This document shows positions 5,421-58,464 of a stretch of DNA of 64,000 bases, one piece after another. The notes under the pieces were generated by a model. It ran no database searches. It was given only the letters and a program-made list of their open reading frames with translations, and was not told the DNA's origin. The DNA is from an uncultured Alphaproteobacteria bacterium (GTDB taxonomy: Bacteria; Pseudomonadota; Alphaproteobacteria; CADEGL01): the NCBI GenBank assembly GCA_902826885.1, contig CADEGL010000010.1:4037-68036 (forward strand), in the 5' to 3' direction. The number at the start of each line of letters is the position of its first letter. Position 1 is the stretch's first letter. The position numbers were made by a program, and so were the translations under genes.

Positions 5421-5445
5421 TACGCACCAAAGAACGGTTTGTTCC
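5421..5445 (-). promoter_or_regulatory. possible EcfG-type promoter for nepR-ecfG (GGAAC-N16-CGTA, one mismatch)
   Basis: On the minus strand GGAAC (plus 5441-5445) is followed by 16 nt and CGTA. Confidence 0.3.
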
Positions 5446-5497
5446 CCGCTTTCGGTTTTATTCGCGCGGCATAAGGGGTTATGCCCGCCCATCGTTG

Positions 5498-5522
5498 GGA
5501 ACCTTCCGCGCGGTTACCCGTT
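5498..5522 (+). promoter_or_regulatory. sigma-EcfG type promoter upstream of phyR: GGAAC-N16-CGTT
   Basis: GGAAC at 5498-5502 and CGTT at 5519-5522. phyR autoregulation by EcfG is the established pattern. Confidence 0.6.
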
Positions 5523-5689
5523 GAAGTCCTGAATATCCATGCCGATTTACCGGGGGCGGGGTCATGGCCGACCGATAATCCAGGAACGGCATCTCCAGTC
5601 CAAACCCGTGTTCACCACCGGGTTCTGAATCGAGGCCGTCGCCACGCCGAGTCCGCGGCGCGGGGGAAATGCAGAGAGAGGATCGCGGA

Positions 5690-9737: not shown

Positions 9738-11385
9738 TCGCCAAGTCGAAGGCGTCGTTGACGTCGAGCCACTGGCCCGCGACATAGGCCACGTCCACAC
9801 GCACGCCGCGCGAAACCAGGCGGCCGAACAGATCGGGCAGGCCCGCCGTCTTCCAGGAGCCGTCCGCCTTCATGAAGGCGATCTCCTCGCGTACCAGGGC
9901 CGCTCCCTTGGCGCTCAGTTTGGCCAGGCCGACCCATTCGCCGTCGACGGCGTCTGGCTTCAGGATGCCGCCGATCCCCGTGATATGGGCCGGCTGGTCG
10001 TCCAGCACGCCGGCCGTGGAGGGGCGTGAGCAATTGACCAGATCGCGCGTGCGGCCGCCGCCCACGCCTTCGCGCGCCATCCACAGCGCATCGACGCTCA
10101 AGACAATATCGCCCGGCGCATCGAGCAGCGCCGACAGGATGTGGTTGCGGAACAGAATGTCGCCGTAGCTGATCAAGCACTCGCCTTCGATCTGCTTTTC
10201 GGCGCAGGCCAAGGACGCCACCTCGCCCGTGGTTTCGTAGGCGTCGTTGTCGACAACGCGGATCGAGGGGACGGTTACGGCCTCCTTGCGATAACCGCGC
10301 ACGACCGTCACGTCGCGCAGGCCTTGCTCGCGTAAGGCGCCGACCAGGCGGCGGAGCAACGGCTGGCCGCGAATGTCGACCATGCATTTCGGCCGGTCGG
10401 CGGTCAGCGCCTCCAAGGTGCTGCCGCGCGAGGCCGCCAGCACCACGGCCTTGGGCTTCGACTTGGCCGGGCCCAGATAGCGGCGCTCGGCCTCATTGAG
10501 CTCTGCATTCTCCGACAGGTCGAAGACGTCTTGGACGCTGGCCACGCGGCCCTCGACGCCCGACAGATTGCCGTCGCGGCGGATGCGCTCCGACACTTCG
10601 CGCATGGCCGTGATGGCGGCGCGCAGATTGTGGTTGGCCCAGATCACCAGCGAGATCCCGGCGTTGGCGAAGGCTTCGGTCGGTGTCGCGTGATACATGG
10701 TCGGCACGATCACGACCGGGCAGCGGCCGCCCCATTCCGCCATGAAGCGCAAGATCTCGTCGGCCGTCTTCAGCTTGGAGTGGACCAAGATCGCGTCCGC
10801 TCCGGCCGCGTGATAGGCCTCGGCCCGGCGCAGCGCCTCGTCCAAACCCCAGCCCGAGATCAGCGCTTCGACGCGCGCGACCATGCAGAAATCGTCGTCC
10901 AGCTGGCTGTCCTTGCCGGCTTTGATCTTGCCGCAGAATTCCTCGATGTCGGCCAAGGGCTGGGCGTCGCCGATGAAGCTGTTGGTCTTGGGGAACAGCT
11001 TGTCCTCGATGCACACGCCCGCGATGTTGCGCTGGCACAGTTTGCGCACCAGGCGGCGCACGTTGTTGAAGTTGCCGTAGCCCGTGTCGCCGTCGACCAG
11101 GATGGGCACGCGCGTCGCATCCGACATGAACTCCAGGACTTCCAGCACCTGGGTCCAGGACGCTTCGTTGGAATCGCGCACGCCGAGCGCAGCCGAGATC
11201 GACAGGCCCGAGGCCCAGATGCCCTCGAAGCCGGCTTGTTCGACGATCTTCGCCGACAAGCCGTTATGGGCTTCCATGATGAAGGACAGCTCCGGCACGT
11301 TCAGCATCGCGCGCAGCCGCGCGGCCTTGCTGGGCTGCGTGTCGGCGGGCGGTGTCCGGGGGATCGCGACCGGTCTCTGAGCCAT
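9718..11385 (-). CDS. pepM: phosphoenolpyruvate phosphomutase fused to a C-terminal nucleotidyltransferase (cytidylyltransferase-like) domain
   Basis: The N-terminal 290 aa are PEP mutase ([16 protein letters not shown]...[11 protein letters not shown]...CIEDK). The C-terminal ~250 aa have an NTP-transferase fold ([33 protein letters not shown]). Confidence 0.85.
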
Positions 11386-11450
11386 GGGGCGGGACTTAAA
11401 CCGGCCTTCCCCGGGAACTCAAGGCCTAAGGCGGCCTGGGCGGGGGCTTT

Positions 11451-11472
11451 GCCGTTCCGGTCCTGGAACGGC
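11451..11472. promoter_or_regulatory. perfect 8-bp inverted repeat GCCGTTCC-N6-GGAACGGC in a divergent intergenic region
   Basis: It lies between the pepM start (11385) and the acyl-CoA synthetase start (11536), so it is a candidate operator. Confidence 0.3.
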
Positions 11473-11535
11473 GCTGCCATTTTTATGGCGCACCTATATC
11501 ATTGGCCCCGTTGGGGGATTTCGGAAGGCAGGGAA

Positions 11536-13155
11536 ATGGCCGCAAGCACCCATGATGCCGCCGCGTTCCGGCGGGCCGTCGAGGCCGAACCGTTGCCCGA
11601 AACCTTGCCGGCGCTCCTGGACCGGGCGGCGTCGCACCACCCCGACCGGGTGATTTGGAACTTTTTCGAGCGGAACGAGAGCTATACCTACCGCCAGGCG
11701 CAGGAGCGCGTGGCGCGGGCGGCCAACGCCCTGCGCGCGCTCGGTGTGCGCAAAGGTACCCATGTGGGGATCATGTCGCCCAACGTCGGGGCCTTCCCCA
11801 TCACCTGGTTGGCGCTCGGGCGGCTTGGTGCCGTGGCGGTCGCGCTCAACACCCGTTACACGCCGCGCGAGGTCGATTACGTCCTGCGCGACAGCGACGC
11901 CGATTTCTTCATCGTGCACGAAAGCCTGCGCCCGGTTTATGAGGCCATTCCCGACAAGCCGCCGCGCATCGCGAAGGACCGCATCGTCGTCATCGATGGC
12001 GCGGGCTCCGGCTACAAAGTCTGGGACGATCTGGTCAATGCGGCCTCGTCCGACTTCACGGCGCGGGAGCCGGTCGCTTGCGACGACGTGCTCAACATCC
12101 AATACACCTCGGGCACCAGCGGCTTCCCGAAAGGTTGCCTCTTGACGCACCGCTATTGGCTCACCATGGGCAAGGCGCACAGCGCGGTGGCCGAGGTCCC
12201 CATTGAGCGCGCGCTCTACAACCAGAACTTCTTCTATCTGGACGGGCCGTGCATCGCGACCATGTGCATGTTCCTGGGCGCCACGTTCTTCTTCGCTTCC
12301 AAGCCCAGCGCGGCCAAGTTCGTCGAATGGGCGCGCACGCACCGCATCAACTATCTGTTCTTCTTCGAGGTGCTCTATAAGCAGCCCGAGACGCCGCTCG
12401 ACGGGCAGAGCGATCTGAAGATGATCCACATCTTCGGCTTCAACAAAAAATACCACGCCGATCTCGAACGCCGCTTCGCGCTCATCGCGCGCGAGTCCTA
12501 CGGCATGACCGAGGCCGGCTGCATCACTTACATGCCGGTTGCGGACAAGCACATGGTGGGCTCGGGCTCCTGCGGCATCCCCGCACCCTGGCGCGAGGTG
12601 AAGATCGCGGGCGACGACGGCGTGCCCGTCGCGCGCGGCGAGATCGGCGAATTGTGGGTGCGCGGTCCGGGCATGATGCTGGGCTATTACAAGAAGCCCG
12701 AGGCCAACGCCGAGTCGTTGCGCGACGGCTGGTTCCTGACCGGCGACCTGCTGCGGCAGGACGAGGCCGGCTACTACACCATCGTAGGCCGGAAGAAGGA
12801 CATGATCCGCCGCAACGCCGAGAACGTGGCCGCGCGCGAGGTCGAGGCCGTGCTGCGCGGCCTGCCGCAAGTGAAGGAGGCCGCCGTGGTGCCGGTGCCG
12901 GACGAGCGCGTGGGCGAGGAGATCAAGGCCTATCTGCAGCTTCAGCCGGGCCTCCAGCACGCCGATCTTCCGCCCGAGCAGGTGATCGCCCACTGCAAGG
13001 CGAATCTCGCGAGCTTCAAGATCCCGCGCTATATCGCTTTCGCCGACACGTTTCCAATGACCGATTCGGACCGGGTCGAAAAGAAAAAGCTGATCGCCGG
13101 CGTGCCCGATCTCACGCGCGACAGTTACGATCGCGTCGACAACATCTGGCGATAG
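11536..13155 (+). CDS. AMP-dependent acyl-CoA synthetase/ligase
   Basis: AMP-binding motifs YTSGTSGFPKG and GYGMTEAG, plus a C-terminal lysine region. The listed ORF 10531..13155 is extended 5' only because its frame lacks a stop; that extension is antisense to pepM. Confidence 0.85.
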   Translation: MAASTHDAAAFRRAVEAEPLPETLPALLDRAASHHPDRVIWNFFERNESYTYRQAQERVARAANALRALGVRKGTHVGIMSPNVGAFPITWLALGRLGAVAVALNTRYTPREVDYVLRDSDADFFIVHESLRPVYEAIPDKPPRIAKDRIVVIDGAGSGYKVWDDLVNAASSDFTAREPVACDDVLNIQYTSGTSGFPKGCLLTHRYWLTMGKAHSAVAEVPIERALYNQNFFYLDGPCIATMCMFLGATFFFASKPSAAKFVEWARTHRINYLFFFEVLYKQPETPLDGQSDLKMIHIFGFNKKYHADLERRFALIARESYGMTEAGCITYMPVADKHMVGSGSCGIPAPWREVKIAGDDGVPVARGEIGELWVRGPGMMLGYYKKPEANAESLRDGWFLTGDLLRQDEAGYYTIVGRKKDMIRRNAENVAAREVEAVLRGLPQVKEAAVVPVPDERVGEEIKAYLQLQPGLQHADLPPEQVIAHCKANLASFKIPRYIAFADTFPMTDSDRVEKKKLIAGVPDLTRDSYDRVDNIWR

Positions 13156-18653: not shown

Positions 18654-18739
18654 GACCGCAACCGCGCCATCCCGGAAACGCATGGCGGGCGCGGCTTCGC
18701 GGCTTGCCCGGTATGGCTGATCGGCCTAGGTTTCCGGCC

Positions 18740-22301: not shown

Positions 22302-22907
22302 TCAGCCGCTTCCGGCCGCCAGCGCCGTCCGTACAAGGTCGGACAGGCTGCGGGCTTCCATTTTCTCCATCACGTTGGCGCGGTGGATCTCGACGGTGCG
22401 CGGGCTGATCTCCAGCGCGTGCGCGATGGCCTTGTTTTGCAGCCCCTCGACCAGCCGGTCCAACACCTCGCGCTCGCGCGGAGTCAGGCGCGCGAGCCGC
22501 GTCTGGGCCTCGGCTTTTCCGCCGACCGTGCGCGCGCGTTGCTCGACCAAGCCCGCGGCGCGCGCGACGGCATCCAGGATTGTTTCGTCCGAATAGGGCT
22601 TCTCGACGAAATCCACCGCGCCGTCGCGCATGGCCTGAACGGCCATGGGAATATCGCCGTGCCCGCTCATCACCACGACCGGCAGCATGTGGCCGGCGAG
22701 GCGGCGCTGAAGTTCGAGCCCGTCCATCTCGGGCATCCGCACGTCGGTCAGGACGCAGCCGCGCGTGTCCGTGCCGATCGCGGCCAAGAGCTTCGGGGCC
22801 GATTCGAACGCACGCACCTCGAAGCCCTTGGCCTGGAGCAACGCTTGGAGCGAATCGCGCACGGCCTCGTCGTCGTCGACGACGAAAATCGTGGTCTTTT
22901 CAGCCAT
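22302..22907 (-). CDS. FixJ/NarL-family response regulator (REC plus LuxR-type HTH)
   Basis: MAEKTTIFVVDDDEAVRDSL...DVRMPEMDGLEL is the receiver domain. The C-terminal HTH is LTPREREVLDRLVEGLQNKAIAHALEISPRTVEIHR. Confidence 0.85.
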   Translation of the reverse strand: MAEKTTIFVVDDDEAVRDSLQALLQAKGFEVRAFESAPKLLAAIGTDTRGCVLTDVRMPEMDGLELQRRLAGHMLPVVVMSGHGDIPMAVQAMRDGAVDFVEKPYSDETILDAVARAAGLVEQRARTVGGKAEAQTRLARLTPREREVLDRLVEGLQNKAIAHALEISPRTVEIHRANVMEKMEARSLSDLVRTALAAGSG

Positions 22908-24915
22908 GGGTCGTATCGGCGGCGGGCAGGGTGAAGGCGAAGATGGCGCCACCGGGAGGATTCGCCTCATGCCGGAGATGGCCGCCATGGGCCTCGACGA
23001 TGGTGCGGCAGATAGACAGGCCCACGCCCATGCCGTCGGCCTTGGTCGTGACGAACGGCTCGAACAGCCGGCCTTCGACCTCGGGCGCCAAGCCCGTGCC
23101 GCTGTCGATGACGGCGACCTCGACGCCGCCGCCGGGCGCCGGCCGCGTGCGGATGGACAATTCGCGCCGGGGCGAGGCGGCCATGGCGTCGATCGCATTG
23201 CGGACCAAGTTGATCACGACCTGCTGGATCTGTAGCCGGTCGACGGCCACGTCCGGCAGGCCGGCTGCCAGGTCCAGCACCGTGCGGACGCCGGCATCAC
23301 TGGCGCCGGCTAGGGCGAGCGCGTTGGCCTCGGCAACCAGGCGGTTGGCGCTCTCGCGCGTGATCTCGGGCTCGCGCTTCTTCAGGAAAGAACGCAAGTT
23401 GCGAATGATGCCGCCGGCGCGCTCGGCCTGGGCCGCGGCCTTGCCCATGACGTCGCGCGTCTTCACGCGCCAATCGGCGCCCTCGTCGGTCAAGAGATGC
23501 TTGCCGGCCTGAACGTAATTCGCAATCGCGGTCAGCGGCTGGTTGATCTCGTGCGCCAGCGCCGAGGCGATATGGCCCATCGTGCTGAGTCGCGTGACGT
23601 GCAGCAATTCACTTTGCAATTCCTGTAGACGCCGCTCGGTCGATTGCCGTTTCGAGATGTCGTGGATGAAGACGGTAAGGATGCGCCGTTCCCGCGTCCG
23701 CGCCTCGCCGATCGAAAGCTCGGTTGGGAAGACCGAGCCGTCCTTGCGGTGGGCCATCACGGCCCGGTTGCGGCCGGGCGACAAATGTCCCGGCAGGTCG
23801 CTCTCATAGTCCTCGCGATAAGGGTTCGACAGCAGGGTGGCGAAGCTCTGGCCAACGACCTCCGCTTCGTCATGGCCGAACAAGCGCGAGGCAGCTGCAC
23901 CGAAGGATTCGATCTTGCCATCCTCGTCGACGGTGACGAGCGCGTCCGGCACGGCGTCCAAAATCGATTGCAGGCGCGCCTCGCGCTCCATCAATGCCTT
24001 CTCGCTGGTTCGGCGCGCGTCCGAGGCAGTGAACACCACATAGGCCGCGATGGCTGTCGTCGACAGGAAGGCCTGCAGCCAGATCACCTGGTCGGCCAGC
24101 GAGCCCATGATCTGGGTGGTCGGCCCTTCGCCCAGCGAGGTCGCCCATGAGCCGATGACGGCGACGGCGACCAGAAGCGTCACGATTTCGAGCGCGGTCC
24201 GGCGCACCGCGAGCCAGACGAAGATCGGTACCAGCACGTAAACACCCATCAGGCGCAGCGTCTGGCTGGTCAGCGCATCCATGAAGACCACCGCCGTGAT
24301 GCCCAGGATCGCGGCGGCGAAAACATAGGCCGAGCGGGAATGCAGGGCCGCGCGCAGTGACTCGCGCGGGCGCATCCAGACCAGGATGGCCGGCGTGATG
24401 AACAGAGTGCCGGTGAAGACCGCGGGCGCCCAAACGATCCAGACCAGGCCGTAGAACGCGGCGAAGGCGTTCTGATACGCCGCGGCCCCCAAGGTGGCGG
24501 AGAGCGCCGCGTTCATCATGGCCGCCGCGATCAGGGCCATGACCGGCCGGCGCGCATCCAGCGGCAGGACAGAGCGTGCGATGGCCTTGTAAACCATGGC
24601 CCCGGCCAGCGCGGCGACGATGCCGTTAGAGGCCAGCCATAGGCCGAGCCAGAACGGGCCGCCCGAAAGATAGATGACGGCGGCCTCGGCCGCGAATAGG
24701 GCGCCCATGAGTGGCAGCCAGTCCCGCTTGGGCCACCATAGGAAGGCCGCCAGGGCCACGCCGGCGGACATCGAGCAGACCGCGATCTCTTGCGGCTCGA
24801 TCCTTAGATGGATGTCGAGCAGGGTCGTGACGGCTCCCAGCGCCGCGATGGCCAGGCAGGCCAGGGCCAGTGGGCCGCGGCTTGACCGGAGGGATGCGCT
24901 TGGGTGTGTCGTCAC
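22900..24915 (-). CDS. sensor histidine kinase with an N-terminal multi-TM (MASE1-like) domain, a PAS domain and a HisKA/HATPase core
   Basis: H-box SALAHEINQPL, an N-box, and G-boxes DSGTG/GMGVGL. It overlaps the RR gene by 8 nt. Confidence 0.85.
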   Translation of the reverse strand: MTTHPSASLRSSRGPLALACLAIAALGAVTTLLDIHLRIEPQEIAVCSMSAGVALAAFLWWPKRDWLPLMGALFAAEAAVIYLSGGPFWLGLWLASNGIVAALAGAMVYKAIARSVLPLDARRPVMALIAAAMMNAALSATLGAAAYQNAFAAFYGLVWIVWAPAVFTGTLFITPAILVWMRPRESLRAALHSRSAYVFAAAILGITAVVFMDALTSQTLRLMGVYVLVPIFVWLAVRRTALEIVTLLVAVAVIGSWATSLGEGPTTQIMGSLADQVIWLQAFLSTTAIAAYVVFTASDARRTSEKALMEREARLQSILDAVPDALVTVDEDGKIESFGAAASRLFGHDEAEVVGQSFATLLSNPYREDYESDLPGHLSPGRNRAVMAHRKDGSVFPTELSIGEARTRERRILTVFIHDISKRQSTERRLQELQSELLHVTRLSTMGHIASALAHEINQPLTAIANYVQAGKHLLTDEGADWRVKTRDVMGKAAAQAERAGGIIRNLRSFLKKREPEITRESANRLVAEANALALAGASDAGVRTVLDLAAGLPDVAVDRLQIQQVVINLVRNAIDAMAASPRRELSIRTRPAPGGGVEVAVIDSGTGLAPEVEGRLFEPFVTTKADGMGVGLSICRTIVEAHGGHLRHEANPPGGAIFAFTLPAADTTHG

Positions 24916-24993: not shown

Positions 24994-26565
24994 CTACGTC
25001 CTGATCCGCGCCCGGCGGAACAGAAGGGCGATCGGCGCCGCGCACATGGCTCCGACCATGATGATGGCGAAGGTCTGGTTATAGCCAATCATGCCGGCTT
25101 GGCGCAGGATTTCGGCATGTATCGACGAGATGCCCGCGGCGCGGCCCACGTCCCATAGTTCGGGCATCGTGTGGATCAGCGGGTTATAGAGCGAGACATG
25201 CTCGATCAGCATGGCGTGCGTGCTCTGGGTGTGATTCGTCCAGTAAGTCACGGTGCTGGCGATGCCGATGCTCGTGCCCAGGTTGATGACCAGATAGAAC
25301 AGCGGCACGGCTTGCGGCCGGTCCTCCGTCGACACGGTCGCGAAGGCCATCGTGTTGAAGGGAATGAAGGCCAGCGCGCAGCCCACGCCCTGCGCCAGCG
25401 CCATCAGCGCCACGCTCCACAGCGTGACGTCCGTCGACCAAAGCGACATCTCGAAAGCGGAGAAGGCGATCAGCCCGAAGCCCACCACGGCCACCAGGCG
25501 AGGGTCGGCGCGCCGGATCAGGAACCCGGTCAGGACGCTGCCGGTCAGATAGCCGAGCTGCCGCGGGGTCAAAAGGATGCCGATCATCTCGACCGGCAAG
25601 CCGCGGAAGTTCTGCAGGAGCAGAGGCAGCATCACCGTCGGCAAGGCCCACATCGTGCCGTAGATGAAAGCGCCGATCAGGCCGATCGTGTAGTTCCGGT
25701 CGCGGAACGGTTCGGGCTTCAGGAACGGGTTCTTGGCCGTCGCGGAATGGGCGACGAACAGATAGAGGCACAAGACGGCGACGATGCACTCCACGATGAT
25801 CTCGGTCGAGCCGAACCAGTCCAGCCGCGCGCCGCGGTTGAACAGAAGCTGGATCGCGCCCAGCCCTACGATCAGCGTGACCAGGCCGAACGCGTCCAGC
25901 CGGCGCGGCCGCTCGTTCGATTCGCGCGGCACGACCGCGATGGCGCCCAGGAGGCCCAGCACCGCCAGCGGCACATTCATGTAAAACACGGCCGGCCAGC
26001 CATAGGCCTCGATCACATAGCCAGCCAACGGCGGCGCCATGATCGAGCCGGCCACGCTACCGACACTCCACAGGGTTAGGGCGTGGCCATACATGGCGCG
26101 CGGGTAGGCATCGACGGCGATCACTTGCGAGAGCGGGATGATCATCGCGCCGGTGAGGCCGAGCAGGAAACGCCACAGCACCTCCTCCTCCAGCGAGTGC
26201 GCGTTGGCGCACAGGATGGTGATGATCAGGAACGCGCTGATGGAAAACGTGAACAGGCGCTTGCGGCCCGTTACGCCGGTCAGCCAGCCGACCAGCGTGA
26301 TGGTTACGGTCGCGCCCACGATGAACGCCGTCACCACCCAGGCGATCTGGTCTGGTGTCGCGGAGAAAGTGCCTTGCATGTGGGGCAGGGCGACGCTGAC
26401 GACCGTAAGGTCGAGCGAATACATGCTGGAGGCCAGCATGGTCGTCGCCATGATCAGACGGCGCCGCAAAACGGAATCGCCGCTGGCCGCATTTGCGAGG
26501 CCGCGCATCATGGCCGGATCAGTCGGTCCTCTCTCGGCGGCTGGTGGATATGGCCGGTGGAGCAT
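24994..26565 (-). CDS. MFS transporter, DHA2 (14-TMS drug:H+ antiporter) family
   Basis: VSVALPHMQG motif and 14 predicted TM helices. The start is ambiguous between Mets at 26565, 26511 and 26451. Confidence 0.75.
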   Translation of the reverse strand: MLHRPYPPAAERGPTDPAMMRGLANAASGDSVLRRRLIMATTMLASSMYSLDLTVVSVALPHMQGTFSATPDQIAWVVTAFIVGATVTITLVGWLTGVTGRKRLFTFSISAFLIITILCANAHSLEEEVLWRFLLGLTGAMIIPLSQVIAVDAYPRAMYGHALTLWSVGSVAGSIMAPPLAGYVIEAYGWPAVFYMNVPLAVLGLLGAIAVVPRESNERPRRLDAFGLVTLIVGLGAIQLLFNRGARLDWFGSTEIIVECIVAVLCLYLFVAHSATAKNPFLKPEPFRDRNYTIGLIGAFIYGTMWALPTVMLPLLLQNFRGLPVEMIGILLTPRQLGYLTGSVLTGFLIRRADPRLVAVVGFGLIAFSAFEMSLWSTDVTLWSVALMALAQGVGCALAFIPFNTMAFATVSTEDRPQAVPLFYLVINLGTSIGIASTVTYWTNHTQSTHAMLIEHVSLYNPLIHTMPELWDVGRAAGISSIHAEILRQAGMIGYNQTFAIIMVGAMCAAPIALLFRRARIRT

Positions 26566-26719
26566 TGTGGCGGCGGCGGCCGGAATGCGCCATCGCCGCC
26601 GCGCGCCGCGACCGGGACCTCCTCCTAAAGTCGACTTGCCCTTGGCGTCGAAATACCGCTTTATATCTACGGCTTAGTCGCCTACCTCGATGCTGGGGCA
26701 GGTCAAATATCGGGGCCGG

Positions 26720-28687
26720 ATGTCCCATATCGTCATCATCGATGACCGGGTCACTAATCGGAACATTCTCGTCAAGCTGGCTCAGTCGCTTGACAGGAAT
26801 GTCGATGTTCGCGCGTTCGCCGACCCGAGCGCGGCAATCGAGTGGTTCGCCGACCACACGCCGGACCTGGTCATCACCGACTACAAGATGCTCAGCATGG
26901 ACGGCGACGCCTTCATCCGGCAGTTCCGCCGCCTGCCGTTCTGCTTCGACGTTCCTGTCATCGTTGTGACGGTCTATGAAGACCGCGACTTCCGATATCG
27001 GGCGCTCGAGGCGGGCGCCACCGACTTCCTTCTAAGCCCTGTCGATCATCATGAATTCCGTGCCCGCGCGCGCAACCTCCTGACCTTGCGTCGCCAGCAG
27101 GAAATCATCCGCAAGCGTGCCCTCACCCTCGAACAGAAGCTGCGCACCTCGGACCGCCTTCACAAGCAGGCGCTTCACACCAGCGCGGAGCTTCTGCGCC
27201 TTGTGGTCGGGTCCGTGCCCGCGATGATCAGCGCGACCGATGAAGAGGGGCGCTGCGTCTTCGTCAACGACTACCTGGCGGATTTCTTCGGCGTTGATCC
27301 CGCCGCCACGATTGGCCGAACGATGGGCGAGCTGTTCGGCGCCGACTACGGCGCGCGGCACGCCGAATACGGTCGGAGCGTTCTGGCCGATGGGCGGCCG
27401 CTGGCCGGCATCGAGGAAGCCTTGAACGACAGGAACGGCCGGCCGGCCGTCTTCCTCACCACCAAGGCGCCGCTGCGCGATGCGGCGGGACGGATCTCCA
27501 GCATCGTGTCCGTGTCGCTCGACATCACCGAGCGCCGCGCGCGCGAGCGCAGCCTCAACGAAGCCTCGGCCCTGGTGAAGGTCACGACGGAGGCCATGGC
27601 CCAGGGTCTGGTCGCGTTCGACGCCGAAATGACCATCCTGATCGCCAACACGCGGGCCGCGTTTCTGCTCGACGTGGCACCGGCCATGCTTCAGCCCGGC
27701 CAGGATTTCCGGAAGATCGTGGCCTATGGCGTGGCGCGCGGGGACTATGCCGCTGCCAGCGCGGACGAGGTTTCGCGCCGCTACTTGCAGATGGGCCGGC
27801 GGGGCGCGGCCTTCACGATCGGTCAGCCGGGATCGGACGACGTCGCGGTCGAGGTTCGCGGCAGCCCGATGCCGACGGGCGGCGCGGTGCTGACCTTCAC
27901 GGACATTACCGAGCGAAAGAAGGTCGAGGCCGAGTTGCTGGTCGCCAAGGAGAACGCCGAGCGGGCCAGCCGCGCCAAGTCGGAGTTCCTGGCGCATATG
28001 AGCCACGAGTTGCGTACGCCGCTCAATGCCATCATGGGCTTTTCCGAATTGATGAAGAGCGAGGTGTTCGGTCCCGTCGGCAGCGACCGTTACCGCGAAT
28101 ACTGCGCCGACATCTACAATAGCGGCGCCCATTTGCTCAGCTTGATCAACGACATCCTGGACCTGTCCAAGATCGACGCCGGCAAGGCGGACCTTCAGGA
28201 ATCCAGCGTCGATGTGGCGGCTTCGATCGAGAACGTGCTGCGCCTGGTGCGCATCCGCGCCGAGGAGGGCAAGGTGCGGCTCGAGGTCGACGTGGCGCCG
28301 GGCTTGCCGCCGATGCGGCTGGACGCGCGCAAGTTCAAGCAGATCTTGATGAATTTGGTTTCCAACGCGGTCAAGTTCACGCCCGAAGGCGGTCAGGTGC
28401 GAATCGGCGCGCGGCTGAGCACCGACCACGGCATGCTGATCGAGGTCGCCGATACCGGTATCGGTATCTCCGAGGAGGATCTGCCGCGCGTGATCACCCG
28501 CTTCGGCCAGGTGACGGGCGAGCATGCGCGCCAGCACGCGGGCAGCGGTCTCGGCCTGCCACTCGCCATCGAGCTGACCAAGCTGCATGGCGGGCGCTGC
28601 GACATCTCGAGCCAAGTGGGCGTCGGTACGGTGGTAACCGTGCGTCTGCCCGGCGAGCGATCCGAACTGCAGGCCAATATCGCCTAA
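26720..28687 (+). CDS. hybrid sensor histidine kinase with N-terminal receiver, two PAS domains, HisKA and HATPase
   Basis: REC domain (IVIIDD...DLVITDYKM). H-box [12 protein letters not shown]-boxes DTGIGI/GSGLGL. Confidence 0.85.
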
Positions 28688-28721
28688 GACGCGGCGGGAA
28701 GACGGCGATGGCGTTCGTGCG

Positions 28722-31259
28722 ATGACCACGGTCGAAACGGCGCAAACCGGCAAGCGGGGCCGCTTGGCCTGGCTGCGCGGCCGTCTCGCCAACCGGCCGG
28801 ACAGCGAGCACGAACAGGCCATTATCCGCGTCGTCATCGTCAGCCTGCTGGCGTTTTATTTTTACGTTTTGGACGACGGTGTGGCGCGGCCGGGCGTGGA
28901 TTATCACGCGGGTTTCCTGTTCGCCTGCGCCTATCTCGCGACCGCGATTTTGATCGTCGGCATGATTGTCGCGCGGCCGGGTAAATCGGTGGCGCGGCGC
29001 ATCTTCGCCATGGTGGGCGACCAGACCACGCTGTCGGTCCTCATGTATTTCGGCGGCGAGGCGGGTGCGGGTATTTACCCGATCTATCTATGGATCACGC
29101 TGGGTTACGGCTTCCGCTATGGCGTGGCCTATCTGCGTCCCGCGGCGTTGTTCAGCATTCTGGGCTTCCTGGCCGTCACGCTGACCAACGAGTATTGGAG
29201 CATCAGCCATCCGCTCTCGATCGGTCTGCTCTTGGCGCTGGTCGTGCTGCCCGCTTATGTCAGTACGCTGATCAAGAAGCTGACCGAGGCCAAGGCGGTG
29301 GCCGAGGACGCCAACCAAGCCAAGAGCCGGTTCCTGGCCAACATGAGCCACGAACTGCGCACGCCGCTCAACGCCATCATCGGCATGAGCGACCTTCTGC
29401 GCGGCACCACGCTGGACGCCGAGCAGCGCGACATGACGCACACGATCGGAAGTTCGGGCCGCGCACTCCTGTCGCTGATCGACGATATTCTCGATCTTTC
29501 GAAGATCGAGGCGCGGAAATATGCGGTCGAAGTCTCCGACTTCGACCTGCACGCCGAGGTGGCCGATCTTGTGTCGATCGTACAACCCCAGGCCGCGGGC
29601 AAGGGGTTGGACCTGCGTGCCCACTTCACGGCGCATACGCCGCACGCCTTGCGCGGCGACGTTCGTCACCTACGCCAAGTGCTGATGAACTTCCTGTCCA
29701 ACGCGGTGAAGTTCACCGAGCGTGGCCATGTCGTCTTGTCGATCGATGCGGTCGATACGCGGGGCGACAAGGCCGTGCTTCTGTTCCGCGTCGTCGACTC
29801 GGGCATCGGCATCCGGCCCGAAGACCGGCAGCGCATCTTCGACAGCTTCACCCAGGCCGATGACGCCACCAACCGCCGCTACGGCGGCACGGGCCTGGGC
29901 CTTGCCATCGCGAAACAGCTCGCGGGTCTTCTGGGCGGCGAGATCGGTGTCGAGAGCGTGCCCGGCGAGGGCAGCACGTTCTGGGTCAAGGCGCCCTTCG
30001 CCATGCGCGCCGCGGATGAGGCACCCTTGGCGCTCGAAGGCCGCGCACTGATCCTCACCGCCGACGGTGCCCTGGCCAACGAGTTGCTGCCGTTGGTCGA
30101 GCGCGCCGGCATGGAGGCCGCCGTGACCCCGACCGCCAGTAAGGCTGTCGAGGAAGCCATGGGTGCCGCCGCGGCGGGCATGGGTTATCGCGTCGTATTG
30201 GTCGATGCGCGCGCGCCGGGGGTCGAGACAAGGAATATCGTCGACGCGATCCGGGCGAGCGATCGCGCATGCCAATTCGTCTTGTTGCGTGGGCCGGCCA
30301 GCGAGCCGGAAGCCTTTGCCCGCGCCTATGTCGCAACGGTGCCGGTTCCGCTGACGGCCGAATCGGTCGAAAACGCGCTGCGCGCGGCCGTGGCATTCGA
30401 CCCGGCCCGCCACGCCGCGGCACCCGCCCGGCCCACTTCGCCGCACCGCGCGTTGCGGGTGCTGATCGCCGAGGACAATCCGGTCAATCGCAAGGTGACG
30501 GCCAAGATTCTGGAGAAGGGCGGACATATCCCCATTCTTGTCGGCACGGCAGACGAGGCGCTCGATCTCTTGGATGCCGAGCCGTTCGACGCCGTGCTGA
30601 TGGACGTCAACATGCCGGGCACGAGCGGGCTCGACGCGGTCAAGCTTTACCGCATGGCGCATCTGGACGGGCGGCATTTGCCGTTCATCGCGTTGACCGC
30701 CGACGCCACGCCCGAGGCGCGCAAGCGCTGCGAGGATGCCGGCATGGACGCTTATCTCACCAAGCCGGTGGATACCGCGCGGCTGATCGCGACGGTTGAA
30801 TCCCTGGCCGTAACGGCGGGCGAGCCGACGGAGGCGGACATGGGCCAAGTGGCCGACATCACCAAGCACCCGCGCTTTCAAAGCGAAGCGCAGCCCGTGG
30901 TCGATTTCCGCGCGTTGGAGGAACTGCATGCGCTCGGCCAAGGCGGCGCGTTCGTGGCCGAGGTGATCGACGACTTCATCGTCGACGCCGAGCAGGTGAT
31001 CGCGGACCTGCGCACCGCCGTGGCCGCCGACGACATCCCGGCCTTCCGCGACAACCTTCATGCCTTGCGCAGCAGCGCCGCCAACGTGGGCGCCGTGCGC
31101 CTGCATCGCGTCTGCTCGGGCTTCGACCGTCGCGGCGCGGCCTCGCTTCGCGACGAGGGGGCAGCCCAAGCGGAGCAGATCGCGGAGGAGTTCGCGCGCT
31201 ACCGCTCGGTGGTCGCGCGCCATCTGGCCGAGCGTTACGGACGCTCGCGCCCCTCCTGA
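28722..31259 (+). CDS. RpfC-like hybrid sensor kinase: multi-TM sensor, HisKA, HATPase, a degenerate REC-like linker, REC and HPt
   Basis: The 5-6 TM N-terminus is followed by the H-box [13 protein letters not shown]. The REC domain reads [13 protein letters not shown]...VLMDVNMP. The HPt motif is [12 protein letters not shown]. Confidence 0.8.
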
Positions 31260-31294
31260 CGGCGGGAGCCGCCGGCCCCCGCCTGCTCACGATC

Positions 31295-32263
31295 TCAGAC
31301 GCCGATGGCCGCCCAGCGCCGGTCCTGCGCCGCGGCCAAACGCTCCATCTTCCGCAAGTCGCTGTTCTCGAGCGTCAGCGCCGTTTCGACCCACAGGTCG
31401 GTGATGTCCAGCAGTTCGCGATGGGAGACCGGGTTGACCATCCGCCGCACTTTGTATACCGCGCGGTGGGCGTTGAAGCTGCGGTCGCGCTCCTCGACAT
31501 ACTGGTAAACCGCTTCCTCGCCTTGGCCGTCGGGCGCCACCATATCGATCACATCCATCGCCTTCAGCTCCTCGGCGGAATAGATACGTCCCGACAGGAT
31601 CATTTCCTCCGCGCGCGCGGGGCCAATGCGACGGCCCAAGAGACTGTAGGCGCCCATGCCGGGAAAAAGGTTGAACAGGATTTCCGGCAGGCCGAACTTG
31701 GCGCTTTTCTCCGCCACGATCACGTCGGCGGCCAGCGCGCATTCGAAGCCGCCGCCGAGTGCGTCGCCCTGGACTAGCGAGATGCTGACCACCGGCGTAT
31801 CCATATTGATTGCGCGCGCATGTTGGACGTCGATGCAGGCATGGGCGTAGCGGCGCAAGCCGGCGCGGTCCTTGGCGCGGATCAGTTCGACGAACAACGG
31901 CAGGTCGCCGCCCAGGTTGAAGATGCCCGGCATGCGCGAGGCCATGACGACGTATCGCATGGACGCTTCGCCGCTCTCCGGGATCTCGGCGAAGACGGTT
32001 TCGACCCAGCGCTGGGCCGCGCGCATGTCGGACAGAAGACCCATGGTGAAACTTGGGCGTCCTGACGGCTTCATGTGCTGCCACAGGATGCGCGCGGGTG
32101 CATCGAGCCGCACGTCGAGTTCGCCCAAATGGGCGGTGTTGCCTAGATCGATTGCGGGTGGGGAAAGCGGCTGGATGGCCAGATTGCCCGTGTATTCCAG
32201 CGTGCGGGCCGCGAGCCGCCCGGCGGGCGCGAACGCGTGAACGGTCTGCTTGGTTTCACTCAT
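31295..32263 (-). CDS. rpfF: RpfF-family DSF (cis-2-unsaturated fatty-acid signal) synthase, crotonase fold
   Basis: Near-identical motif blocks to Xanthomonas RpfF: FNLGGDLPLF, SLVQGDALGGGFECALAADVIVAE, GLPEILFNLFPGMGAYS and WVETALTLENSDLRKMERL. SD AAGGAG lies 6 nt before the ATG at 32263. Confidence 0.8.
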   Translation of the reverse strand: MSETKQTVHAFAPAGRLAARTLEYTGNLAIQPLSPPAIDLGNTAHLGELDVRLDAPARILWQHMKPSGRPSFTMGLLSDMRAAQRWVETVFAEIPESGEASMRYVVMASRMPGIFNLGGDLPLFVELIRAKDRAGLRRYAHACIDVQHARAINMDTPVVSISLVQGDALGGGFECALAADVIVAEKSAKFGLPEILFNLFPGMGAYSLLGRRIGPARAEEMILSGRIYSAEELKAMDVIDMVAPDGQGEEAVYQYVEERDRSFNAHRAVYKVRRMVNPVSHRELLDITDLWVETALTLENSDLRKMERLAAAQDRRWAAIGV

Positions 32264-32465
32264 GATCATCTCCTTGGGAACCGGTTTGAGGCGAGCGATG
32301 GGACTCCCCCCATGGAAAGATGCGCGCGGCATTTGACAGGCGCAATACGACCTCCCTTTCCGATTGCCTTGAGGTGCCGGCAAAAGTGGCGCCGGAGCGC
32401 TTGGCCGGGCGCCCGTCCAGCGGCTAAGCTGCGGGCCCGCAAAGGGAAATGAGGGGGAGCCTCCC

Positions 32466-34175
32466 GTGCAATACGACTACGTCATCATCGGCGGCGGGTC
32501 CGCCGGCTGCGTGCTCGCGAACCGCTTGTCGGCCGATTCGAACAAGACCGTATGCCTGATCGAGGCCGGGCCGAACGAATCGCCCGAGCACATGCCGCAG
32601 TCGCTCTATGAGGCGTCCTTCCTGCCCGATTATTTCGAGGACAAGCGCTACTGGACCAAGCTCGAAGCCTTCATGGACCCGATCGGCAACAAGACGGTCG
32701 ACGAGGTCGCCTCATCGGGAAAGGCGCGCCGCTATGAGCAGGCGCGGGTGATCGGCGGCGGCTCGGCCGTCAATGGCCAGGTCGCCATCCGCGGCATCCC
32801 CTCGGACTACGACGAGTGGGCTTCGCTCGGCGCCGACGGCTGGACGTTCAAGGACGTCCTGCCCTACTTCAACAAGCTTGAACGCGACCTGGATTTCGAC
32901 GGCCCCTATCACGGCAAGCAGGGGCCGATTCCCATCCACCGCATCTTCCCGCAGGATTGGGGCGGCCTGTCGTTGGCTTTCCGCGACGCGGTCGCCACGC
33001 GCGGTGTCCCCTATTACGACGACTGCCACGCCAACTTCACGGACGGCTGTTTCCCCTTCACGCGCAACAACGCTTATCTGCACCGTGTCTCGGCCAACAC
33101 GGGCTATCTCGACGGCGCGACGCGCCAGCGCAAGAACCTGCACATCACGGGCGAAAGCTTCGTCGATTCCTTCGTCTTCGAAGGCAACCGGGTGGTGGGC
33201 GCGCGCGTGCGCCGTGCCGGTAAGACCGACGTCATCAAGGGCCGCGAGATCATCCTGTCGGCGGGCGCCATCCATTCGCCCGCCATGCTGATGCGCGCGG
33301 GCATCGGACCCGGCGATCATTTGAAGGAACGCGGTATCGAAGTGCGCGTCGACCGGCCGGGCGTGGGCTCGAATCTGCAGGACCATCCGCTCATCGGCTA
33401 TGGGCTGCACTTGAAGCCCGAGGGCCGCATGGCCGAGACCCTGCGCTGCAACTTCCTGTTGCATATGCGCTGGTCGTCCAAGTTCGAGGGCTGCACGCCC
33501 ATGGACATGAAGCTGTCGGTCTCGAACCGCTTCTCCTGGAGCAAGATGGGCCAGCAGATCGCGACCATCCAGTTTGGCGCCAACAAGGCCTATTCCAAGG
33601 GCTTTGTGCGCCTGAAAAACGCTTCGCCGGACGAGGAGCCGATCGTGGCGTTTAATCTTCTGTCCGATTCGCGTGATCTGGAGCGGACGAAATGGGCTGC
33701 GCGTTTCGTCTACGACGTGCTGATGAACGGGCCGGTCAAGGACATGTACCACTCGGCCTGGCCGGGCATTTACGCCGACTCCGTCCGCAACCTGCAGCCG
33801 GAGACGGGTCTTAACAAGTTCATCACCAATATGGCCGCGATGCTGCTCGACATGGGCGGCCCGGCGCGCGCCTTCGTGATCAAGCAGGCCGTCGATCCGC
33901 GCTTCGACCTGCACGAAATCCAGAAGAACGAAAAGCTGATGGAAGAGTGGATTCGGGCGGGCGTGCAGGGCGACTGGCACGCTTGCGGCACCTGCCGGAT
34001 GGGCCGCAAGGACGACCGCATGGCGGTGACCGATCCGCACGGCCGCGTCTACGGTATCGAAGGATTGCGCGTGGTCGATGCTTCGATCATGCCGTCGGTG
34101 CCCTGCGCCAACACCAACATCTCGACGATCATGATCGGCGAGAAGATGTCCGATCACATCAAGGCGGCGGGCTGA
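32466..34175 (+). CDS. GMC-family FAD-dependent oxidoreductase (choline/alcohol dehydrogenase-like)
   Basis: YDYVIIGGGSAGCVLANRLS at the N-terminus and a GMC C-terminal His-containing active-site block. GTG start with SD GAGGGGGAG. Confidence 0.85.
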   Translation: MQYDYVIIGGGSAGCVLANRLSADSNKTVCLIEAGPNESPEHMPQSLYEASFLPDYFEDKRYWTKLEAFMDPIGNKTVDEVASSGKARRYEQARVIGGGSAVNGQVAIRGIPSDYDEWASLGADGWTFKDVLPYFNKLERDLDFDGPYHGKQGPIPIHRIFPQDWGGLSLAFRDAVATRGVPYYDDCHANFTDGCFPFTRNNAYLHRVSANTGYLDGATRQRKNLHITGESFVDSFVFEGNRVVGARVRRAGKTDVIKGREIILSAGAIHSPAMLMRAGIGPGDHLKERGIEVRVDRPGVGSNLQDHPLIGYGLHLKPEGRMAETLRCNFLLHMRWSSKFEGCTPMDMKLSVSNRFSWSKMGQQIATIQFGANKAYSKGFVRLKNASPDEEPIVAFNLLSDSRDLERTKWAARFVYDVLMNGPVKDMYHSAWPGIYADSVRNLQPETGLNKFITNMAAMLLDMGGPARAFVIKQAVDPRFDLHEIQKNEKLMEEWIRAGVQGDWHACGTCRMGRKDDRMAVTDPHGRVYGIEGLRVVDASIMPSVPCANTNISTIMIGEKMSDHIKAAG

Positions 34176-34185
34176 AGGAGGCCGG

Positions 34186-34548
34186 ATGGCGGCGGTTACG
34201 GCGGAACGGCCAGGCGGCTTATTGATCGCGAGCGTCGTCGCGGCGCTTGTGGTCGTGGCCGCCGCGTTGGCCGTCCGCTTTCTCGTCATCGAGGGCCAGA
34301 TGGCCCAGGCCTGTATCGCGATGACGCCGCCGTCCTGGTGCGCGGCACGGAACTCGCTGGTGCAGTTCTTCCGCGCCGAAGGTTTCGGCTACGCGGCGCT
34401 GGCGGCCGGCATCCTGGCGCATCTCTTCGGCGGCCGGCCCGCGGCCATCGTGGCGCTGATCGTGGGGGCGGCGGGGTTGGTGCTCTACAACACCGGCCTG
34501 GCGTCGGTCGCCGTTCTGCTCGGCCTGTTGCGTCTCGTCCGGCGCTAG
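34186..34548 (+). CDS. small membrane protein (120 aa, 3 TM)
   Basis: SD AAGGAGG precedes it. Hydrophobic helices are present. No family assignment. Confidence 0.55.
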   Translation: MAAVTAERPGGLLIASVVAALVVVAAALAVRFLVIEGQMAQACIAMTPPSWCAARNSLVQFFRAEGFGYAALAAGILAHLFGGRPAAIVALIVGAAGLVLYNTGLASVAVLLGLLRLVRR

Positions 34549-36188
34549 GCGCGCTTCCGCAAGCCGAGCCACGGCCAGGCCAGGACCAAGCAGGTCACCG
34601 TCCAGCCCCAGGCCTGCCAGTTCTCGAACCCTTCGCGCACGCCGCCCACCAAGGCCGCCGTGGCCAGAAGCCACGCCAGCCAGCGTTCTTCCGTGCGCCC
34701 CGGTGCAAGCCGTCCACCCGCCGCCAGGAAACCCACGGCGGGAATCAGGAACGCGACGGTGGGGAAATCGCGGTAGCGCGGATCGAAAACGAGGGCGAGC
34801 GCGATGGCGGTCGCGGCGAACACCGACGCACCGTGCAGAACGCCGAGCCACAACGATGGGGTGAAGGGTGCCGCCCAGAACCCGCGCGGCCAGGCCAGCA
34901 CGTCGCGCAACGGGGCCGCGCGGTAACCGTCCCCCGCATACGGCCAGAACAATGCGCCGCGCGCGGCATGGCGCAGCAAGGTCCAGGCCGTGGCCAAGGA
35001 CAGCGCGATACCCGCGATCCCGAAGCCCCAATCGCGCGGCGTGACGCTGGTGATCGCGACGAAGCGTGCCTGCACGACGACGATGCAACCAGCCGCCATG
35101 GCGGCGAAGGCAAAGGCCAGCCATTCGGCGGTGGAGAAACGCCGGCCGCGGCTGAGCGCGTACAACACCGGCAAGGCCGCGAGCGCGAGGGAGGCCGCGA
35201 GCCGCTCGCGCCAGAACGCATCGCCTCCGGCGGGACCGATGAAGGGGAATTTGGCTTGGCGCGCGGTGTCGTAGAGGCCCCAATAGCCGCCGACCGTGCC
35301 TTCCTGCGCGCGCTTCCACGATTGGTCGAAGGCCTCGATCACGTTGTAGTCGATGCCCTTGGCCTCGGCGAGATTGACGAAGCCGCGGATGAAGCGCGCC
35401 TGGTTCGCGGGGCTCGGCCGCGCGGCCTCGCGCATGCGCCCTTCGCTCGGCCAGCCCGTCTCGCCGATCAGGAGCTTCTTGTTCGGAAACTTGGCCTGGA
35501 CGATTCCCAGGATGTTGGCGATGTGATCGACCGCATGGTCGATGCCGATCGGATCGTCCTCCCAATAGGGCAGGATGTGGATGGTCACGAAGTCCGCCGC
35601 CTCGGCCAGCTGCGGATTTCGAAGCCAAAATTCCCACACGTCGGCGTAGGTGACAGGCACTTTGGTCGCCTGCCGCGCCTGATTCATCATCGCGGCCAAG
35701 GCTTCGGGCGGTTGTTCCTGGCGTAGAAGCGTCTCGTTGCCGATGACCAGCGCCCGCACCGTGTCGGGATAGGCGTTGGCCAGTTCGATGACCTCTTGCA
35801 GCTCGCGCGCATTGCGGTCGGCCTCGCGCCCGATCCAGGCGCCCACGATCACTTTAATGCCGAGCTTCTGCGCGAGGCGCGGGATCGCGTCCTGGCCGTG
35901 GGCGGTGGAATAGGTGCGCACGCAGTCGAAGCGCTCGGCCAGATAGCGAAGGTCGGCCTCCATCTGCGCGGACGGAATCATCAGCTCGGGGTCGGCGGGC
36001 GTTTGCCAGCCCTGGAACGGCGCATAGGAGACGCAGCGCAATTTCGCCGTCGGCGCGTCGGGAATTCCCGCCACGGGCTGGCCTTCGAACCACCAGCCGA
36101 TCGCCGCGAGGATGGCGGCCAAGAGAAAGGCCAGCGCGCCGACCCAGCGCGGGCGGAAGCGTTGCACACTTTGCTCCGCCCCCACCAT
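34545..36188 (-). CDS. NdvC-like glycoside hydrolase family 17 (beta-1,3-glucan transglycosylase) fused to a C-terminal polytopic membrane domain
   Basis: GH17 catalytic motifs IGNE and GETGWPS. The C-terminal ~250 aa form a multi-TM region. The start at 36188 overlaps the exoD stop by 1 nt. Confidence 0.75.
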   Translation of the reverse strand: MVGAEQSVQRFRPRWVGALAFLLAAILAAIGWWFEGQPVAGIPDAPTAKLRCVSYAPFQGWQTPADPELMIPSAQMEADLRYLAERFDCVRTYSTAHGQDAIPRLAQKLGIKVIVGAWIGREADRNARELQEVIELANAYPDTVRALVIGNETLLRQEQPPEALAAMMNQARQATKVPVTYADVWEFWLRNPQLAEAADFVTIHILPYWEDDPIGIDHAVDHIANILGIVQAKFPNKKLLIGETGWPSEGRMREAARPSPANQARFIRGFVNLAEAKGIDYNVIEAFDQSWKRAQEGTVGGYWGLYDTARQAKFPFIGPAGGDAFWRERLAASLALAALPVLYALSRGRRFSTAEWLAFAFAAMAAGCIVVVQARFVAITSVTPRDWGFGIAGIALSLATAWTLLRHAARGALFWPYAGDGYRAAPLRDVLAWPRGFWAAPFTPSLWLGVLHGASVFAATAIALALVFDPRYRDFPTVAFLIPAVGFLAAGGRLAPGRTEERWLAWLLATAALVGGVREGFENWQAWGWTVTCLVLAWPWLGLRKRA

Positions 36189-36805
36189 CACCAGGCCTGG
36201 AGTTGCTGGAAGAAGCGGGTCACGGCGTAGAAGCCGGTACCCACAATGGCGACGAAGACGGCCAGGGCCACGGCACTGGCCAGCACACCCGCCAGCACCG
36301 TCACGCCATCGGCTTCGATCAGCCCCAGCGAGACGATGGCGATGCCGATGGCGGGCAGCAGGTTCGCGCCCACTAGCGGCAGCAGCAGCACGAGTCCCAA
36401 TACGACCAATAGAAGGCCGAGCAGCCGTTCGGCCACGCCTTGCGGCGTCACGGTCAGCCGCGGCTTGCAATAGCGTTCGAACCGTTCGATGGCGGGCCGC
36501 ACCCGGTCGGCCATGCGCTTGAAGTCGGCGCGCCGCACGTCGCGCGTGAGCAACTTCTTGGGCAGCCATGGGCGCTTGTGCCCCAGCATCATCTGTCCGG
36601 CCGTGATCACGATCAGCACGCCGAACAGGGACGAGATGCCGGGCAGGGGGATCATGTTGGGCAGCGCCCAGATGAAGAGAATGACACCGAAGCCCCGCCC
36701 GCCCAGCTCTTCCGCCAGATCGGCGAAGGACAGGCGATCCTCCGGATGCCCTTCGTCCGCGATGCGCCGCAGAAGCGTGGAAATACGTTCATGATGCGGT
36801 CGCAT
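36188..36805 (-). CDS. exoD: ExoD family exopolysaccharide synthesis protein
   Basis: ExoD family membrane topology and conserved N-terminus (DRLSFADLAEELGGRGFGVILFIWALPNMIP). Confidence 0.75.
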   Translation of the reverse strand: MRPHHERISTLLRRIADEGHPEDRLSFADLAEELGGRGFGVILFIWALPNMIPLPGISSLFGVLIVITAGQMMLGHKRPWLPKKLLTRDVRRADFKRMADRVRPAIERFERYCKPRLTVTPQGVAERLLGLLLVVLGLVLLLPLVGANLLPAIGIAIVSLGLIEADGVTVLAGVLASAVALAVFVAIVGTGFYAVTRFFQQLQAW

Positions 36806-58426: not shown

Positions 58427-58464
58427 CGCTTCCTCGGATTGTTAGGGGCCAGCGGGTCCGTCGC

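Follow-up and report, generated by a model that had tools for sequence, protein, structure and literature searches.

A probable DSF-family signalling module with a receiver-PAS-kinase protein in the rpfG position in an uncultured alphaproteobacterium

A 64,000-nucleotide (nt) stretch from an uncultured Alphaproteobacteria bacterium (GenBank assembly GCA_902826885.1, contig CADEGL010000010.1, positions 4,037 to 68,036; hereafter the window) carries three genes at 26720..32263 that encode a REC-PAS-PAS-histidine kinase, a membrane hybrid kinase and a convergent crotonase, and that resemble the rpf genes of diffusible signal factor (DSF) systems. Nearly all work on DSF signalling concerns xanthomonads, Burkholderia and a small number of further pathogens, in which it operates via cyclic di-GMP (c-di-GMP), through RpfG or RpfR. 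The first gene, in the position of rpfG, is an open reading frame (ORF) of 665 amino acids (aa) on the forward strand (26690..28687), for which public gene calls begin at Met11, i.e., at 26720 (655 aa); residue numbers of its product refer to the 665-aa ORF. Lying 34 nt 3′ of it on the same strand is the gene for an RpfC-type hybrid sensor kinase of 845 aa (28722..31259), followed on the reverse strand by the gene for an RpfF-family crotonase of 322 aa (31295..32263, from Met41 of ORF 31295..32383). The stop codons of the latter two genes are 35 nt apart and convergent (31260..31294), in agreement with an earlier reading of this DNA made from the sequence alone (the original prediction), which had described a synthase tail-to-tail with a hybrid kinase. 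GC content at third codon positions is high in all three genes (0.80-0.85), public collections contain exact copies of the three proteins, and a promoter and terminator scan of 26.4-32.6 kb gave nothing above shuffled controls.

The crotonase matches Pfam ECH_1 above the gathering score (E 1.4e-27), and among solved structures it matches 7zq7 (6e-58), RpfF of Xanthomonas campestris pv. campestris (Xcc; 3m6m, 1e-57) and the RpfF proteins 6dgn and 5fus (2e-49), while the best non-RpfF crotonase structure reaches only 2e-19, which places RpfF proteins ahead by about 38 orders of magnitude in E-value. In a 10-sequence alignment it is 44% identical to the Xcc RpfF fragment and 37% identical to the fragment from B. 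cenocepacia. The block-for-block correspondence to RpfF that had been proposed is confirmed, as the blocks FNLGGDLPLF, LVQGDALGGGFE, GLPEILFNLFPGMGAYS and WVETALTL are all found, and the RpfF-specific C-terminal block is conserved as well: ITDLWVETA...LRKMERLAAAQDRR (pattern ITxxWVxTA...LRxMxRLxxAQxRR). Translation and alignment place the two catalytic glutamates at E174 (codon 31742-31744) and E194 (codon 31682-31684; together 31682..31744, reverse strand), which correspond to the GGGFE and GLPE glutamates in Xcc RpfF and do not vary among the 10 aligned sequences, B. cenocepacia RpfF included. Their conservation had been predicted correctly, but they are not specific to RpfF: because ordinary enoyl-CoA hydratases also have both, these residues are necessary rather than diagnostic. 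The closest RpfF homologue among the species-representative matches listed is 63% identical, and the protein is named "crotonase/enoyl-CoA hydratase family protein" by NCBI and "DSF synthase" by the Joint Genome Institute (JGI). From its sequence, it is presumed to be a DSF-family signal synthase.

The second protein combines a hydrophobic N-terminal region of about 190 aa with HisKA (200-264), HATPase_c (312-426), Response_reg (580-692) and Hpt (747-824) domains identified by Pfam. Its membrane input domain (residues 1-186; 28722..29279, forward strand like all features of this protein) was delimited by a hydropathy scan, which gave four strong helices and a weaker hydrophobic stretch at about 93-125. 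Between the last helix and the H-box is a short linker of about 24 aa that contains no HAMP domain by Pfam, as described for RpfC. Immediately before the first transmembrane helix, the translation reads R25-P-D27-S28-E29-H30-E-Q32 (28794..28817). In Xcc RpfC, the N-terminal juxtamembrane segment R15-A-D17-S18-E19-H20-A-Q22 has been analyzed experimentally, and R15, D17, S18, E19 and Q22 are required for DSF sensing (Cai et al., PMC5391125). All five essential residues are kept in the window protein with identical spacing (R25, D27, S28, E29 and Q32), and L18 and R21 also correspond to L8 and R11 of Xcc RpfC. The kinase core (29319..29999), with H210 in HisKA, and the region comprising the receiver and histidine phosphotransfer (HPt) domain (30459..31193), with acceptor D628 and H780, were assigned from Pfam and motif positions, and the motifs around the three residues (H-box, receiver and HPt) are normal. 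A segment of about 145 aa (residues 429-575; 30006..30446), which separates the kinase core from the receiver, matches no family: it has no Pfam hit at E <= 0.01 and no PDB hit, and tblastn matches it only in near-identical contigs. This segment is rich in Ala and Val and we can only guess that it is a degenerate receiver; relatives of the kinase are nonetheless similar in total length (about 820-870 aa).

As a comparator for RpfC and RpfG, a 123-kb contig of JGI metagenome 3300045721 (locus L085) was used, found via the sequence of the crystallised Xcc RpfC receiver. Its genes run in the order rpfG (REC + HD-GYP), rpfC, convergent rpfF and an AMP-binding rpfB; its RpfC receiver shares 74% identity with the Xcc one, and its RpfC starts ...L8..R11...R15-Q-D-S-E-H-G-Q22, with numbering as in Xcc. 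All four rpf genes of this contig are split by frameshifts, which are more likely due to long-read assembly error than to pseudogenisation. Residues 27-427 of the window kinase, which include the whole membrane domain, are 41% identical to L085 RpfC over 408 aa (E 9e-96) in an alignment that begins within the sensor motif, and among solved structures its receiver best matches that of Xcc RpfC in the crystal with RpfF (3m6m chain D, E 4.7e-29). Architecture, sensing motif, input-domain homology and receiver match all bear out the RpfC-like assignment—transmembrane region, histidine kinase, receiver and HPt—of the original prediction, and JGI likewise names the 90% cluster representative "sensor histidine kinase RpfC".

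The product of the upstream gene consists of Response_reg (14-127), PAS_4 (175-284), PAS_7 (301-413), HisKA (429-498) and HATPase_c (545-655) domains, all on the forward strand: the receiver, from Pfam and alignment, is encoded at 26729..27070, with the acidic pair D18/D19 and the predicted phospho-acceptor D64 (in ITDYKM); the two PAS domains at 27212..27928 (Pfam E 1.1e-24 and 9.6e-27); and the kinase core at 27974..28654 (Pfam), where the H-box, the NAVKF box, and the G1 (DTGIG) and G2 (GSGLGL) motifs are visible in the translation. Catalytic motifs are thus intact in both kinases of the locus. The receiver with its linker helix aligns without gaps to that of L085 RpfG (46% identity over 142 aa, E 4e-42) and, over 149 aa that again take in the linker helix, shares 38-50% identity with those of five REC-HD-GYP proteins encoded beside rpfC and rpfF, as opposed to 22% and 29% for the other receivers compared in the window, those of the RpfC-type kinase and of the LuxR-type regulator at 22.3 kb. 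Pfam finds no HD or HD_5 domain, and since the output is PAS_4-PAS_7-HisKA-HATPase_c without HD-GYP, the protein is not an RpfG, and is instead an RpfG-type receiver carried on a different output. Its position and its receiver speak against the earlier view that this REC-first kinase forms a separate, second system. With a REC-PAS-PAS-kinase in the place of rpfG, the trio therefore probably represents a complete DSF-family rpfG*-rpfC-rpfF module that is likely to deliver its output as a second phosphorelay and not through c-di-GMP hydrolysis.

The distribution of this arrangement was analyzed in 80 related loci, the best species-level matches from a scan of species-representative genomes with an RpfF alignment. 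About 60 of them are labelled alphaproteobacterial and include Acetobacteraceae, Rhodospirillales, Hyphomicrobiales and Sphingomonadales, as well as Inquilinus, Skermanella, Pseudovibrio, Microvirga and Aureimonas; a few are labelled gamma-, beta- or zetaproteobacterial, or Leptospirillum. An RpfC-type input domain is encoded beside the RpfF homologue, in convergent orientation, in 66 of the 80, with a gap usually shorter than 430 nt, and about 55 also have a homologous REC-first gene directly upstream of the RpfC-type gene on the same strand. The output of this REC-first protein is PAS-GGDEF-EAL in 36 loci, PAS(-PAS)-HisKA-HATPase in nine (including one REC-kinase without a matched PAS), HD-GYP as in canonical RpfG in five (including Methylophaga, Sideroxydans and Thioalkalivibrio), and truncated or unclear in another five. 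The REC-PAS_4 part of the window protein (residues ~11-290) is mostly 42-57% identical to REC-PAS-GGDEF-EAL proteins in the same position, and 33-37% identical in sphingomonad loci. No fourth conserved gene, for a cognate regulator or otherwise, was found in the kinase-output loci: apart from antisense shadow ORFs, the three module genes alone cluster across them.

An approximate neighbour-joining tree of RpfF places the Xcc protein at the base, followed by HD-GYP-linked and then kinase-linked sequences, with the GGDEF-EAL-linked ones forming the crown; the window RpfF pairs with that of locus L005 among the kinase-linked sequences. This topology is consistent with swapping of the output inside one family. 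Two forms of the sensor motif can be recognized. The first, Xcc-like, occurs in the window protein and most kinase-linked sensors; of the five HD-GYP-linked sensors, three have it and two carry degenerate versions. The second, RPD(S/T/R)EHEM..NR, occurs in most GGDEF-EAL-linked sensors. Loci L008 and L028 are exceptions to this split between motif form and output type. The two forms might reflect different signal chemistry. Five alphaproteobacterial-type RpfF/RpfC loci (L019, L016, L027, L031 and L056) occur in assemblies that carry the labels Mycobacterium sp. KBS0706, Terriglobia, Opitutaceae, Bacteroidota and Thermoplasmata; the arrangement and protein lengths of the KBS0706 locus are identical to those of Inquilinus limosus (L021). 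Such labels are probably due to mislabelling or to contamination during binning, and not to genuine hosts of these kinds.

Gene order and orientation in the window are those of Xcc, where an rpfG-rpfC operon converges on rpfF (2015 review, PMC4504480). The similarity extends to RpfF (44% identity and both glutamates), to the RpfC architecture, lack of HAMP and sensing residues, and to the RpfG-like receiver. In contrast with Xcc, where RpfG carries HD-GYP, the window has PAS_4-PAS_7-HisKA-HATPase as output and no c-di-GMP enzyme in the module; it also lacks rpfB beside rpfF, and rpfH, its RpfC-type protein has the extra segment of about 145 aa, its RpfF has an N-terminal extension of about 45 aa, and its host is an alphaproteobacterial metagenome-assembled genome. 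Clusters of rpfF, rpfG and rpfC are also known from Methylophaga, Leptospirillum, Thiobacillus and Methylobacillus (PMC4504480). In the Methylophaga locus (L080), genes for a REC-HD-GYP protein, an RpfC-type kinase and RpfF follow the same order as in the window, with 38% identity in the input domain and 42-47% in the receiver; from Leptospirillum (L083, a 5.1-kb contig), only the RpfF homologue was recovered, and both RpfF proteins are 48-49% identical to that of the window. Such clusters outside the xanthomonads keep the HD-GYP output, unlike the window. The alphaproteobacterial REC-PAS-GGDEF-EAL clusters (36 of 80; Inquilinus limosus, Pseudovibrio, Microvirga, Aureimonas and sphingomonads, among others) share the three-gene order, the REC-PAS_4 front end and the RpfF clade, but differ in having a GGDEF-EAL output for c-di-GMP turnover and sensors that mostly carry the second motif form.

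In the RpfF-RpfR systems of Burkholderia and Cronobacter, the genes for synthase and sensor converge and signalling involves a PAS domain, as in the window (PMC4504480); however, RpfR is a soluble PAS-GGDEF-EAL receptor without membrane kinase or receiver, an architecture absent from the genes of the window, and no RpfR-like PAS domain appears among the solved-structure matches. Xcc additionally has the soluble kinase RpfS, whose PAS_4 domain binds DSF (PMC4504480). The phc operon of Ralstonia also mediates quorum sensing by a fatty-acid-derived signal, and PhcR, encoded downstream of the sensor kinase PhcS, is a soluble receiver-histidine kinase without DNA-binding domain (PMC8578825). The synthase there is instead the methyltransferase PhcB and the signals are methyl 3-hydroxy fatty acid esters, and the likeness of PhcR to the REC-PAS-PAS-kinase, compared by domain plan, is an analogy of design only.

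These comparisons suggest how the module may work. By homology, the RpfF-like crotonase would convert a 3-hydroxyacyl thioester into a cis-2-unsaturated fatty acid, with E174 and E194 carrying out dehydration and thioester cleavage. Given the conserved sensing residues and input domain, the RpfC-type kinase may detect this signal with its N-terminal R-x-D-S-E-H-x-Q motif and membrane helices, and would autophosphorylate at H210 and pass the phosphate to D628 and then to H780. From the HPt domain, the phosphate would proceed to D64 of the upstream protein, as its RpfG-type receiver and conserved position suggest; the D64 receiver would then control the PAS-PAS-histidine kinase and hence a second phosphotransfer to a response regulator presumably encoded elsewhere, and a further, cytoplasmic input may enter through the two PAS domains. 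The sequence holds every catalytic and phospho-accepting residue of a His-Asp-His-Asp relay ending on D64. The best explanation of the locus, which we regard as probable, is a complete DSF-family module that works in this way. A more far-reaching reading, about as likely as not, is that the DSF pathway of one alphaproteobacterial lineage has been rewired: RpfC would phosphorylate an RpfG-type receiver fused to a PAS_4-PAS-kinase, a protein that would accept phosphate as RpfG does and sense a fatty acid in the cytoplasm through PAS_4 as the kinase RpfS does, so that a c-di-GMP-output system would have become a two-tier kinase cascade, and rpf would be a widespread three-gene cassette of Alphaproteobacteria with interchangeable outputs (HD-GYP, PAS-GGDEF-EAL or PAS-kinase).

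Several observations weigh against the proposed module and its mechanism. The receiver of the window protein and of all its alphaproteobacterial relatives examined has Ser in place of the conserved Lys (LLSPVD in the window; alphaproteobacterial form ..DFL(L/Q/I)SPVD..), whereas HD-GYP-linked receivers carry Arg or Lys at this position, and the window lineage, including close relatives, has Leu for the usual Pro after the acceptor Asp (DYKMLSMDG, against DYKMPxMDG in other relatives); judged from the sequences, both changes could weaken or alter phosphorylation-dependent switching. In the input domain, four helices are clear and one is weak, where orthologues beside REC-HD-GYP genes give five. 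The crotonase fails the strict NCBIfam RpfF equivalog model NF053515 (235.5 bits, cut-off 550) and passes its sister model NF006452 (370 bits, cut-off 177), and is therefore an RpfF-family member but by that criterion not an equivalog of the xanthomonad enzyme. A cognate response regulator beside the module is absent in every kinase-type locus examined, the RpfF tree is approximate only, and the open-access literature searched yields no measured signal, binding or phosphotransfer for this alphaproteobacterial group.

Alternative interpretations concern the output, the role of the REC-PAS-PAS-kinase and the nature of the crotonase itself. The RpfC-type kinase might signal to a distant regulator or to the FixJ/LuxR-type REC-GerE regulator at about 22.3 kb, the REC-PAS-PAS-kinase being an unrelated neighbour, and the original prediction had suggested these same two candidates. 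This regulator does lie only 4 kb upstream, in a window devoid of any HD-GYP, GGDEF or EAL protein. However, the start of its gene overlaps the 3′ end of that of a MASE1-PAS-HisKA-HATPase kinase (22900-24915; pair at 22302-24915, reverse strand, from domain assignments) on the same strand, the usual layout of a self-contained two-component pair, which these two genes look like. Its receiver is just 29% identical to the RpfG-type receiver, and neither member of the pair is conserved beside rpfC and rpfF elsewhere, where the tblastn hits are the module's own genes. The gene that is conserved in position, in about 55 loci, is the REC-first gene with an RpfG-like receiver. The nearby regulator was accordingly rejected as output, the earlier suggestion is not supported, given the gene in the rpfG position, and this interpretation as a whole appears quite improbable. 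An even more remote reading holds that the crotonase is an ordinary enoyl-CoA hydratase or thioesterase of fatty-acid metabolism and that the locus is no signalling system at all, which would fit the noncommittal NCBI name, the missed RpfF equivalog cut-off, the occurrence of the two catalytic glutamates throughout the crotonase superfamily, and a 3-hydroxyacyl-CoA dehydrogenase gene 7 kb away. The E-value lead of RpfF proteins over all other crotonases, of some 38 orders of magnitude, and the retention of the RpfF-specific C-terminal region argue against it, as does the linkage to an RpfC-type sensor in 66 of the 80 loci, across many orders, alongside which metabolic genes are not conserved.

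The REC-PAS-PAS-kinase could also belong to the module without being its phosphorelay output, acting either as a phosphate sink or competitor for RpfC or as a parallel cytoplasmic DSF sensor working through PAS_4 like Xcc RpfS, with the receiver only modulating its activity. Its first PAS domain is of the PAS_4 family, through which RpfS binds DSF (the two are likened here by domain family alone), RpfR binds the Burkholderia diffusible signal factor BDSF through a PAS domain (PMC4504480), the REC-PAS_4 unit is retained as a block in both the kinase-type and the GGDEF-EAL-type proteins, and the receiver lacks the conserved Lys. On the other hand, PAS_4 is a very common family and RpfR is absent from the solved-structure matches. 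A role of this kind is unlikely in our view, and it overlaps with the best explanation given above rather than excluding it.

The rest of the 64-kb window contains no HD-GYP, GGDEF, EAL or Clp-like gene among the predicted genes scanned. The sole AMP-binding enzyme found (10531..13155) was considered as rpfB and rejected, being 18 kb away and failing every NCBIfam cut-off; the earlier statement that neither rpfB nor an HD-GYP RpfG lies nearby thus holds across the 64 kb, where HD-GYP proteins and a convincing rpfB are both lacking. A GMC oxidoreductase gene (32466-34175, forward) diverges from the rpfF-like gene and is followed by genes for a 120-aa protein without family (34186-34548, forward) and a 674-aa protein that weakly matches GH17 (34545-36569, reverse); these three are conserved only in near-identical contigs and are therefore placed outside the module. 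A GMC oxidoreductase also adjoins the rpf cluster of L085. The MASE1-PAS kinase and REC-GerE pair is flanked by MFS transporters (18704-19975 and 24994-26565). A general stress response locus at 4328-6517, as correctly noted in the original prediction, comprises an extracytoplasmic function sigma factor with a PhyR_sigma2-like region (4328-5017, reverse) and the PhyR anti-anti-sigma response regulator (5669-6517, forward; Pfam PhyR_sigma2, PhyR_sigma-like and Response_reg), and no link between it and the rpf module was seen. Further genes encode an RTX-repeat protein with eight HemolysinCabind stretches (53602-55077, forward), two tandem class II aldolase paralogues (57635-59250, reverse) and two proteins with tandem Usp domains (21402-22274, forward, and 61397-62227, reverse), and six DAO-family FAD oxidoreductases are dispersed through the window.

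The module is common in Alphaproteobacteria and is already labelled by annotation pipelines, and a KEGG-based survey notes RpfC-RpfG in alpha-proteobacteria (PMC8895600). No experimental work on an alphaproteobacterial DSF system came up in a search of the open-access literature, with subscription journals outside its reach. The description of such systems as little explored is consequently fair for experiments and does not apply to their occurrence, given the roughly 60 alphaproteobacterial loci among 80, the JGI labels and the survey. Within the incomplete coverage of the open-access literature, no paper was found that describes either rpf cluster variant, the kinase-output or the REC-PAS-GGDEF-EAL one, and the string "REC-PAS-GGDEF-EAL" does not occur in the open-access papers that treat RpfF or RpfC.

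What the window and about 55 related loci have in common is the same synthase-sensor pair and a conserved RpfG-type receiver, joined to an output domain that has been exchanged. Culturable hosts in which signal chemistry and regulon could be studied are available in Inquilinus, Skermanella, Pseudovibrio, Microvirga and Plastoroseomonas. The three output types represent a natural experiment on how one phosphorelay can be re-plugged into different outputs and, if the proposal for the kinase-output form is correct, gene expression in some soil and water Alphaproteobacteria would be controlled by DSF-family signals without any c-di-GMP enzyme in the module.

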